Shown here in pieces: positions 29,028-29,122 of a stretch of DNA of 39,777 nucleotides. Within the stretch, counting starts at the first letter, position 1, and each line of letters opens with the position of its first letter. The notes below the pieces were generated by a model that searched no databases, had not been told where the DNA came from, and was given only the letters and a program-made list of their open reading frames with translations. Source of the DNA: a virus (Duplodnaviria > Heunggongvirae > Uroviricota > Caudoviricetes); the IMG/VR virus record IMGVR_UViG_2537562191_000049. The stretch is one strand, 5' to 3'. Position numbers and translations under genes: made by a program.

Positions 29028-29122
29028 TGGTAATTTGCTGGTAATCTGCTGGTACAGTATTGCTTGCATGCATTGGTATTGCTGGCTTTGAGGTGGTAAT
29101 TTGCTGGTAATCTGCTGGTACA
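29028..29122. repeat. Origin-like iterons within the O-like gene
   Basis: Two identical 29-bp direct repeats tggtaatttgctggtaatctgctggtaca (29028-29056 and 29094-29122), each with two 11-bp sub-repeats, next to an AT-rich tract (29001-29027); encode repeated VPADYQQITT. Confidence 0.55.

Follow-up and report, generated by a model that had tools for sequence, protein, structure and literature searches.

The stretch of DNA analysed here, the 39,777-nucleotide (nt) IMG/VR virus record IMGVR_UViG_2537562191_000049 (called the window below, meaning the whole stretch), is a P22-like prophage. In the middle of the gene for its O-like replication initiator it carries an array of short direct repeats, and this array is probably the replication origin, annotated so far as putative, of a module of the HK022/HK620/VT2-Sakai type ('Eru3'). 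As we read it, the origin would consist of two clusters of three 11-bp repeats (core TACCAGC), 66 bp apart, followed by a 19-bp AT-rich tract and then by a palindrome with 10-bp arms. The origin itself matters little, having long been annotated. The added value of the present analysis lies in the comparative evidence and in a testable hypothesis on specificity, which covers a large non-lambda 'O-like' family that includes the medically important VT2-Sakai/Eru3 Shiga toxin (Stx) phages.

Anatomy and annotation of the repeat array

The array contains two identical direct repeats of 30 nt (GTGGTAATTTGCTGGTAATCTGCTGGTACA on the plus strand), located at positions 29027-29056 and 29093-29122, with a start-to-start distance of 66 nt. 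An earlier note on this DNA, made from the sequence alone, had described them as identical 29-bp repeats; their identity held, and the length had to be corrected to 30 nt. The initiator gene lies on the minus strand; reading along it, copy 1 is the repeat at 29093-29122 and copy 2 the one at 29027-29056. Translation of the restored minus-strand frame confirmed that both copies encode VPADYQQITT, at residues 132-141 and 154-163, respectively, of the protein restored as described below. On the coding strand each repeat unit reads GTACCAGCAGA TTACCAGCAAA TTACCAC. The 11-bp sub-repeats that had been noticed inside each copy are thereby borne out, and Tandem Repeats Finder likewise reported period-11 arrays at 29023-29054 and 29094-29120.

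Followed in phase, the 11-mers form two clusters of three on the minus strand, GTACCAGCAGA TTACCAGCAAA TTACCACCTCA at 29089-29121 (cluster 1) and GTACCAGCAGA TTACCAGCAAA TTACCACAGAT at 29023-29055 (cluster 2), and these 11-mers are likely candidates for the units bound by the initiator. The clusters are separated by a 33-nt spacer (29056-29088, minus strand) that combines a fixed length with fast sequence change (nucleotide diversity [pi], 0.39). This spacer harbors degenerate copies of the 11-mer, namely GCCAGCAAT, which is in phase, and a TACCA shifted by two bases (phase 9); these may be weak extra sites or relics. We also searched the whole window for the pattern KTACCAGCARA and found five exact matches, four of them in the repeat region. 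With one mismatch allowed, there were 12 matches against 2.3 expected, a number that was reached in none of 100 shuffles. The clustering of the repeats exceeds chance.

Along the gene, the second repeat is immediately followed by a 19-nt AT-rich tract (29004-29022) with a G+C content (GC) of 0.05, a candidate DNA-unwinding element. The earlier note had the repeats flanking such a tract, but the 36 nt between them have a GC of 0.44, like the rest of the gene (0.45 to 0.48), and the AT-rich DNA lies beside the repeats instead. Together, the repeats and the AT-rich tract occupy nt 394 to 511 of the 900-nt initiator gene, that is, its middle. Next after the tract comes a perfect palindrome with 10-bp arms, TCTCTAATAC-GTCA-GTATTAGAGA, at 28980-29003.

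These repeats are already known and have been annotated since 1999-2001. In the VT2-Sakai record (AP000422), two misc_binding features called 'ori iteron 1' and 'ori iteron 2' (O protein-bound) map exactly to 29093-29122 and 29027-29056, respectively. The rep_origin feature of HK620 (AF335538), at nt 393 to 488 of the gene, corresponds to positions 29122-29027 of the window, and analogous features, labelled 'putative origin', are found at the equivalent position of the gene in the records of Sf6 and phage L. This is in agreement with the earlier reading of the array as origin repeats inside an initiator gene, as are the comparative tests described below, and comparison with the origin regions of other phages thus returned either the very same repeats (HK620 and VT2-Sakai) or analogous putative origins (Sf6 and phage L). 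Over the 3' part of the gene, the DNA of the window is 98.4 to 99.9% identical to that of HK022, HK630, mEp235, VT2-Sakai, the Morioka Stx1 and Stx2-II phages, and others. Residues 1 to 131, read with the insertion element IS629 removed, are 100% identical to the protein of HK022, HK620, and VT2-Sakai. In phage L, six imprecise 11-bp repeats have been described as the likely origin (PMC8022706). The replication region of VT2-Sakai has been classed as 'Eru3', without sequence relation to O and P of lambda or 933W (Llarena et al. 2021, PMC8044961), and the identity between Eru3A and the O protein of 933W is about 3% (PMC8044961).

Conservation of the array at the DNA level

We compared the array with that of 14 phage homologues, which range from Escherichia to Vibrio and Lactobacillus phages, and with that of 80 IMG/VR loci, which gave 69 distinct sequences in all. 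In each of the 14 homologues (22 to 100% identity), tandem repeats of 11 nt directly follow a conserved (Y/F)D(D/E)(Y/F)Q at the end of the N-domain of the initiator. The stretch after the repeats is AT rich, with a GC of 0.20 to 0.33 in the homologues from enteric phages and of 0.29 to 0.40 in three distant ones, and in the enteric phages it is followed by a palindrome. All 69 distinct sequences have six core sites in a single 11-nt phase, with spacings of 11, 11, 44, 11, and 11 nt. Iteron-type origins are recognized by phased direct repeats beside an AT-rich stretch, and this is what we found, the repeats being phased in 69 of the 69 sequences and the AT-rich neighbor being present in the relatives from enteric phages. 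Furthermore, no segment evolves faster than the spacer, yet its length is constant in all 69 sequences. Such constancy is consistent with a constraint on helical phase, 33 nt being the shortest spacer with which neither the reading frame nor the 11-nt phase is disturbed.

The repeat is in frame (66 nt correspond to 22 codons), and a peptide resembling P-(A/T)-D-x-Q recurs among the relatives. Both facts would suit a repeat that is purely coding driven, in which the duplicated linker peptide VPADYQQITT is under selection at the protein level, a possibility that the earlier note had itself raised against an origin. However, the conserved unit is the 11-mer. Because a period of 11 nt is not divisible by 3, each of the three 11-mers of a cluster is translated in a frame of its own, and there is therefore no protein-level reason for the repeat. 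The recurring peptide results from the shared CCA(A/G)C core, while the peptide encoded by the spacer varies freely. In addition, silent positions vary far less inside the 11-mer than they do elsewhere. Among ten TACCAGC-type genes, whose N-domains are 79 to 100% identical, the nucleotide diversity was 0.02 to 0.04 in the repeats, compared to 0.167 in the N-domain, 0.394 in the 33-nt spacer, and 0.289 at the third positions of those codons whose amino acid is invariant. The difference was significant both between the third positions of the repeats and the silent positions of the N-domain (Fisher test, P = 4e-4) and between repeat columns and spacer columns (P = 6e-11). Taken as comparisons of sequences, these results support a DNA-level function of the repeats. 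A peptide-driven repeat was rejected on the grounds of the three reading frames and of silent-site conservation, and we regard it as very improbable.

The number of 66-nt (22-codon) units varies in nature, with alleles of one (L052 and L094), two, three (L051 and P0002-P0027), and four (P0001) units. The spacer of P0002 encodes PMHASNT, as it does in the window. This variation from one to four units resembles that between four and six repeats in lambda-type Stx phages (PMC7466680). Alleles of one, three, and four units mean that recombination between units occurs, and the two copies in the window are 100% identical; they might thus be a recent product of slippage or unequal crossover that has no function. 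We find this hardly credible, as relatives whose N-domains share as little as about 45% identity also have the 3+3 layout. Their 11-mers differ in sequence and are in phase throughout, which implies that the layout has been maintained over a long time.

At least seven different perfect pairs of palindrome arms occur at the same position among the relatives (28980-29003 in the window; loci L003-L096), including AATAC/GTATT, TCTAC/GTAGA, and CTTAC/GTAAG, and in these alignments the palindrome is preserved via compensatory changes. An RNA hairpin would be preserved equally well by such changes. On the plus strand, the palindrome and the adjoining T-run (28980-29013) scored as a weak terminator-like pattern in a consensus scan, which counts against an origin element, and in the record of phage L, terminators are predicted on the strand opposite to gene 18, shortly downstream of the putative origin. 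The palindrome and the T-run could accordingly be an intrinsic terminator for antisense transcription and no part of the origin. We consider this rather unlikely, given that the stem contains only three G-C pairs, that 28600-31700 yielded no promoter-like site in the antisense direction, and that a palindrome placed directly after the AT-rich tract resembles the layout of the lambda origin. The two roles are compatible and do not exclude each other.

Alternatively, the sites could bind the initiator but mainly serve regulation, be it autoregulation, a roadblock to transcription, or control of copy number and incompatibility by titration, with replication starting elsewhere. Plasmid repeats of a similar kind are generally known to serve copy control as well, and the range from one to four units in nature points to a certain tolerance. 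Nevertheless, with an AT-rich tract and a compensated palindrome next to the repeats, the region is laid out like a working origin, and we judge an exclusively regulatory array with a distant start site to be unlikely.

The initiator, its specificity, and the IS629 insertion

The initiator gene is present in two parts, both on the minus strand. The 5' part (30763-30827) comprises codons 1 to 21 and two bases of codon 22. The 3' part (28615-29449) runs from the last base of codon 22 to the stop codon and encodes the N-domain, the segment with the origin repeats, and the C-terminal domain. Between the two lies a 1,310-bp insertion sequence (29453-30762, minus strand), which we take to be IS629 from its ends and its length; it has terminal inverted repeats TGAACCGCCCCGG, is flanked by a 3-bp target duplication, CTT (29450-29452 and 30763-30765), and contains two transposase open reading frames (ORFs), which have the orientation of O. 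In RefSeq, matching copies are listed as IS3-like element IS1203 family. Excision of the element together with one copy of CTT joins 30827-30763 to 29449-28615 and restores an uninterrupted frame of 900 nt and 299 amino acids.

The earlier note had called the O gene truncated and its DNA-binding N-domain cut off by IS629. Neither description can be kept. The gene is interrupted in codon 22, with both parts inside the window and the intact frame restorable, and what is split off amounts to codons 1 to 22 only, the N-domain (about residues 24 to 128) still being encoded beside the repeats. Distant homologues from Vibrio, Shewanella, and Lactobacillus phages begin at about residue 24 in the alignment, where the conserved N-domain starts, and residues 1 to 22 are therefore a variable extension. 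The proper description is an IS629-interrupted initiator gene with an intact origin and an intact coding region for the DNA-binding domain.

We then compared the restored protein with protein families. Residues 2 to 299 matched phrog_345 ('replication initiation O-like') with an E value of 1.7e-87. Nothing in Pfam or NCBIfam scored above threshold: NCBIfam gave no match, Phage_rep_O (PF04492) was not matched by the N-domain even at E values up to 10, and the sub-threshold hints were to DUF7376, Phage_rep_org_N, and HTH_24. The hint to Phage_rep_org_N (PF09681) covers residues 48 to 127 with an E value of 0.094 and 13.2 bits, below the cutoff of 23.3, and at E values up to 0.01 this family was matched by none of 12 aligned relatives. 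A search of the PDB by sequence returned no match for the protein alone and nothing meaningful for a 12-member profile. As far as such comparisons of sequence go, the initiator is not a homologue of lambda O and bears the name 'O' by position only. In a single-sequence AlphaFold model, the N-domain has a helix-turn-helix with helices at residues 84 to 88 and 92 to 104, followed by strands. The model is suggestive of a winged-helix domain at about residues 24 to 128.

At 75% identity, 40 distinct N-domains fell into eight clusters, each of which has a single type of 11-mer core (TACCAGC, TACCAAC, TGCCAAC, GTCCAGC, or GTCCAAC). Without exception, residue 90 matches the base after CCA, leucine going with G and isoleucine with A. 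Residues 96 and 97 are Q/H-Y with TACCA, K-Y with TGCCA, and K/R-S/A with GTCCA. In the modelled helix-turn-helix, residues 90, 96, and 97 fall within the turn and the N-terminal half of the long helix. The core TACCAAC was found with two quite different N-domains (locus L063 and Pantoea PA-1), both of which have I90-Q96-Y97. We hypothesize that this co-variation of residues and bases reflects direct readout, for which it is suggestive evidence.

The gene also shows a mosaic breakpoint at 29024/29025, which is the edge of the last 11-mer. The segment 28615-29024 is 92 to 97% identical to genes of the Sf6, L, HK75, ST64T, and SE1 type, while the repeats and the N-domain upstream of it differ. 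As the breakpoint coincides with the edge of the repeats, the N-domain and the repeats form one exchangeable module, and the AT-rich tract, the palindrome, the C-domain, and the helicase form another.

From the layout and its conservation we infer that the array is bound, that DNA is unwound next to it, and that replication fires there. In the proposed mechanism, monomers of the N-domain (about residues 24 to 128) would bind the 11-mers, spaced by one helical turn, on the same side of the double helix and in head-to-tail order. The bound complex would melt the neighboring AT-rich tract, and the C-terminal domain would recruit the phage's own DnaB-like helicase, which is encoded next door. The repetition of VPADYQQITT would then be a by-product of the DNA repeat in a flexible linker.

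Several points weigh against this picture. The origin annotations in the databases all say 'putative' for this module. Literature searches for O binding or origin activity of the module found only work on the lambda type or nothing, those on replisome organizers gave nothing of use, and the Eru3 paper makes no mention of iterons or an origin (PMC8044961). The AlphaFold model is weak, with a mean predicted local distance difference test (pLDDT) score of 52 and of 58 to 87 in blocks of the N-domain. Its best Foldseek hits in the PDB, the winged-helix domains of CRP, MarR, and LexA, are nonsignificant at E values of 0.27 or worse. As to specificity, the repeats adjoin the coding region of the N-domain, so that co-inheritance alone explains part of the association, and independent switches of specificity are few.

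In the prophage itself, the origin DNA is intact. An intact, expressible initiator gene was not found, as IS629 sits in codon 22 and only a chimeric ORF remains. This chimeric IS629::O ORF (28615-29529, minus strand) starts within the end of IS629, from an ATG at 29529 or 29511, overlaps the stop codon of the transposase gene orfB (29495), and then runs on into O, which it enters in frame at residue 22. The NCBI annotation, which begins at MIWQ, describes it as a 298-amino-acid hypothetical protein (P0028; GCA_000194335.2, contig AEZU02000028.1). The O::IS629 junction was absent from 5,426 complete Escherichia coli genomes. Normal expression of O is probably lost or altered in this prophage. 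Since the whole N-domain is retained, the sequence of the chimeric ORF suggests that it might be a still-working initiator. A more far-reaching proposal would combine these points: the binding unit would be the 11-mer and not the 30-mer, origin specificity throughout this widespread family would come from a tiny residue-to-base code in the recognition helix, and the chimeric ORF would work through read-through from IS629, with the prophage still replicating. Taken as a whole, we regard this proposal as tentative and on the doubtful side.

Even with its initiator gene split, the origin could respond to O from a related phage. An origin of this kind, left intact next to a disabled initiator gene, could still fire if another prophage of the same O type supplied the protein, which bears on prophage induction and mobilization. 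Stx1 and Stx2 converting phages with this O type have both been isolated from E. coli O157:H7 Morioka V526. Transcription from pR must cross IS629 before it reaches the origin. The lambda origin requires transcriptional activation, and if the same were needed here, by analogy, O provided in trans may be insufficient.

The window is otherwise that of a P22-like prophage, for which we considered the regions 1-24000 and 30763-39777. Its genes for the portal, terminase, coat, and DNA-transfer proteins share about 96% identity with those of phiv205-1, CUS-3, and JEP4, and its early region (immunity and recombination) is mosaic with Stx-converting and HK-type phages. The gene of the DnaB-like replicative helicase, the partner of the initiator (27189-28640, minus strand; DnaB, 8e-31; DnaB_C, 3e-60), overlaps the end of O. 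Its start is uncertain: the longest ORF begins with a GTG at 28640, which gives an overlap of 26 nt with O, and the start differs between the two Japanese phage records of the same gene. On the other side of O, between cII and the initiator gene, an ORF of 48 amino acids (30820-30966, minus strand) belongs to DUF2740 and is the 'orf48' of HK022 and P22. PHROG (phrog_1913) and several phage records label it 'tail protein', which, given its position in the early operon, looks like a propagated annotation error.

Comparison with known initiation systems

The closest systems are those of HK620 (AF335538), HK022 (U02466, NC_002166), and VT2-Sakai (AP000422), which carry the same 30-nt repeats at nt 393 to 422 and 459 to 488 of the gene. 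As in the window, a gene for a DnaB-like helicase lies downstream, and cII and orf48 lie upstream. The window differs from them by the IS629 insertion at codon 22, and it has the spacer allele PMHASNT, compared to PMPVSNT in HK620.

Gene 43 of Sf6 and gene 18 of phages L and ST64T encode initiators of the same family. Their C-terminal half, AT-rich tract, and palindrome are 92 to 97% identical to those of the window, and they also have 3+3 11-mers spaced by 66 nt (PMC8022706). In contrast, their N-domains are only 48 to 57% identical to the one studied here, and the core of the 11-mer differs as well (TGTCCAACGG versus TACCAGCA).

A similar order of elements is found in the replisome organizers of Gram-positive phages (Phage_rep_org_N), such as G38P of SPP1 and Rep of TP901-1, where a DNA-binding N-domain is followed by an origin of short direct repeats in the same gene. 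ORF30 of the Lactobacillus phage phiAT3 is a relative over the N-domain (tblastn, 1e-12) and has five tandem 11-mers. However, the C-terminal domains and the helicase partners of the replisome organizers differ from those described here, and the Pfam match is below threshold.

The earlier note had seen in the window the lambda arrangement of an origin inside O, and part of this comparison stands. In lambda, the initiator gene likewise has the origin at its middle, with an origin-binding N-part on one side and a helicase-recruiting C-part on the other, and a palindrome follows the AT-rich tract. The O protein of lambda binds its repeats as dimers. By eye, the 11-mers have no internal dyad symmetry, unlike what is expected of lambda-type repeats. 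The order of iterons and then an AT-rich tract is also that of lambda, where relatives differ in the number of repeats, and additional repeats lengthen the protein (PMC7466680). What did not hold are homology to O, the type of repeat, and the partner protein. The initiator has no detectable Phage_rep_O homology, its repeats are 3+3 direct repeats of 11 bp, compared to four of about 20 bp in lambda (PMC8022706), and it is paired with a DnaB-type helicase of the phage and not with a lambda P (PF06992) that loads the host DnaB. The module would show the same split between origin binding and helicase recruitment as lambda, reached by unrelated proteins.
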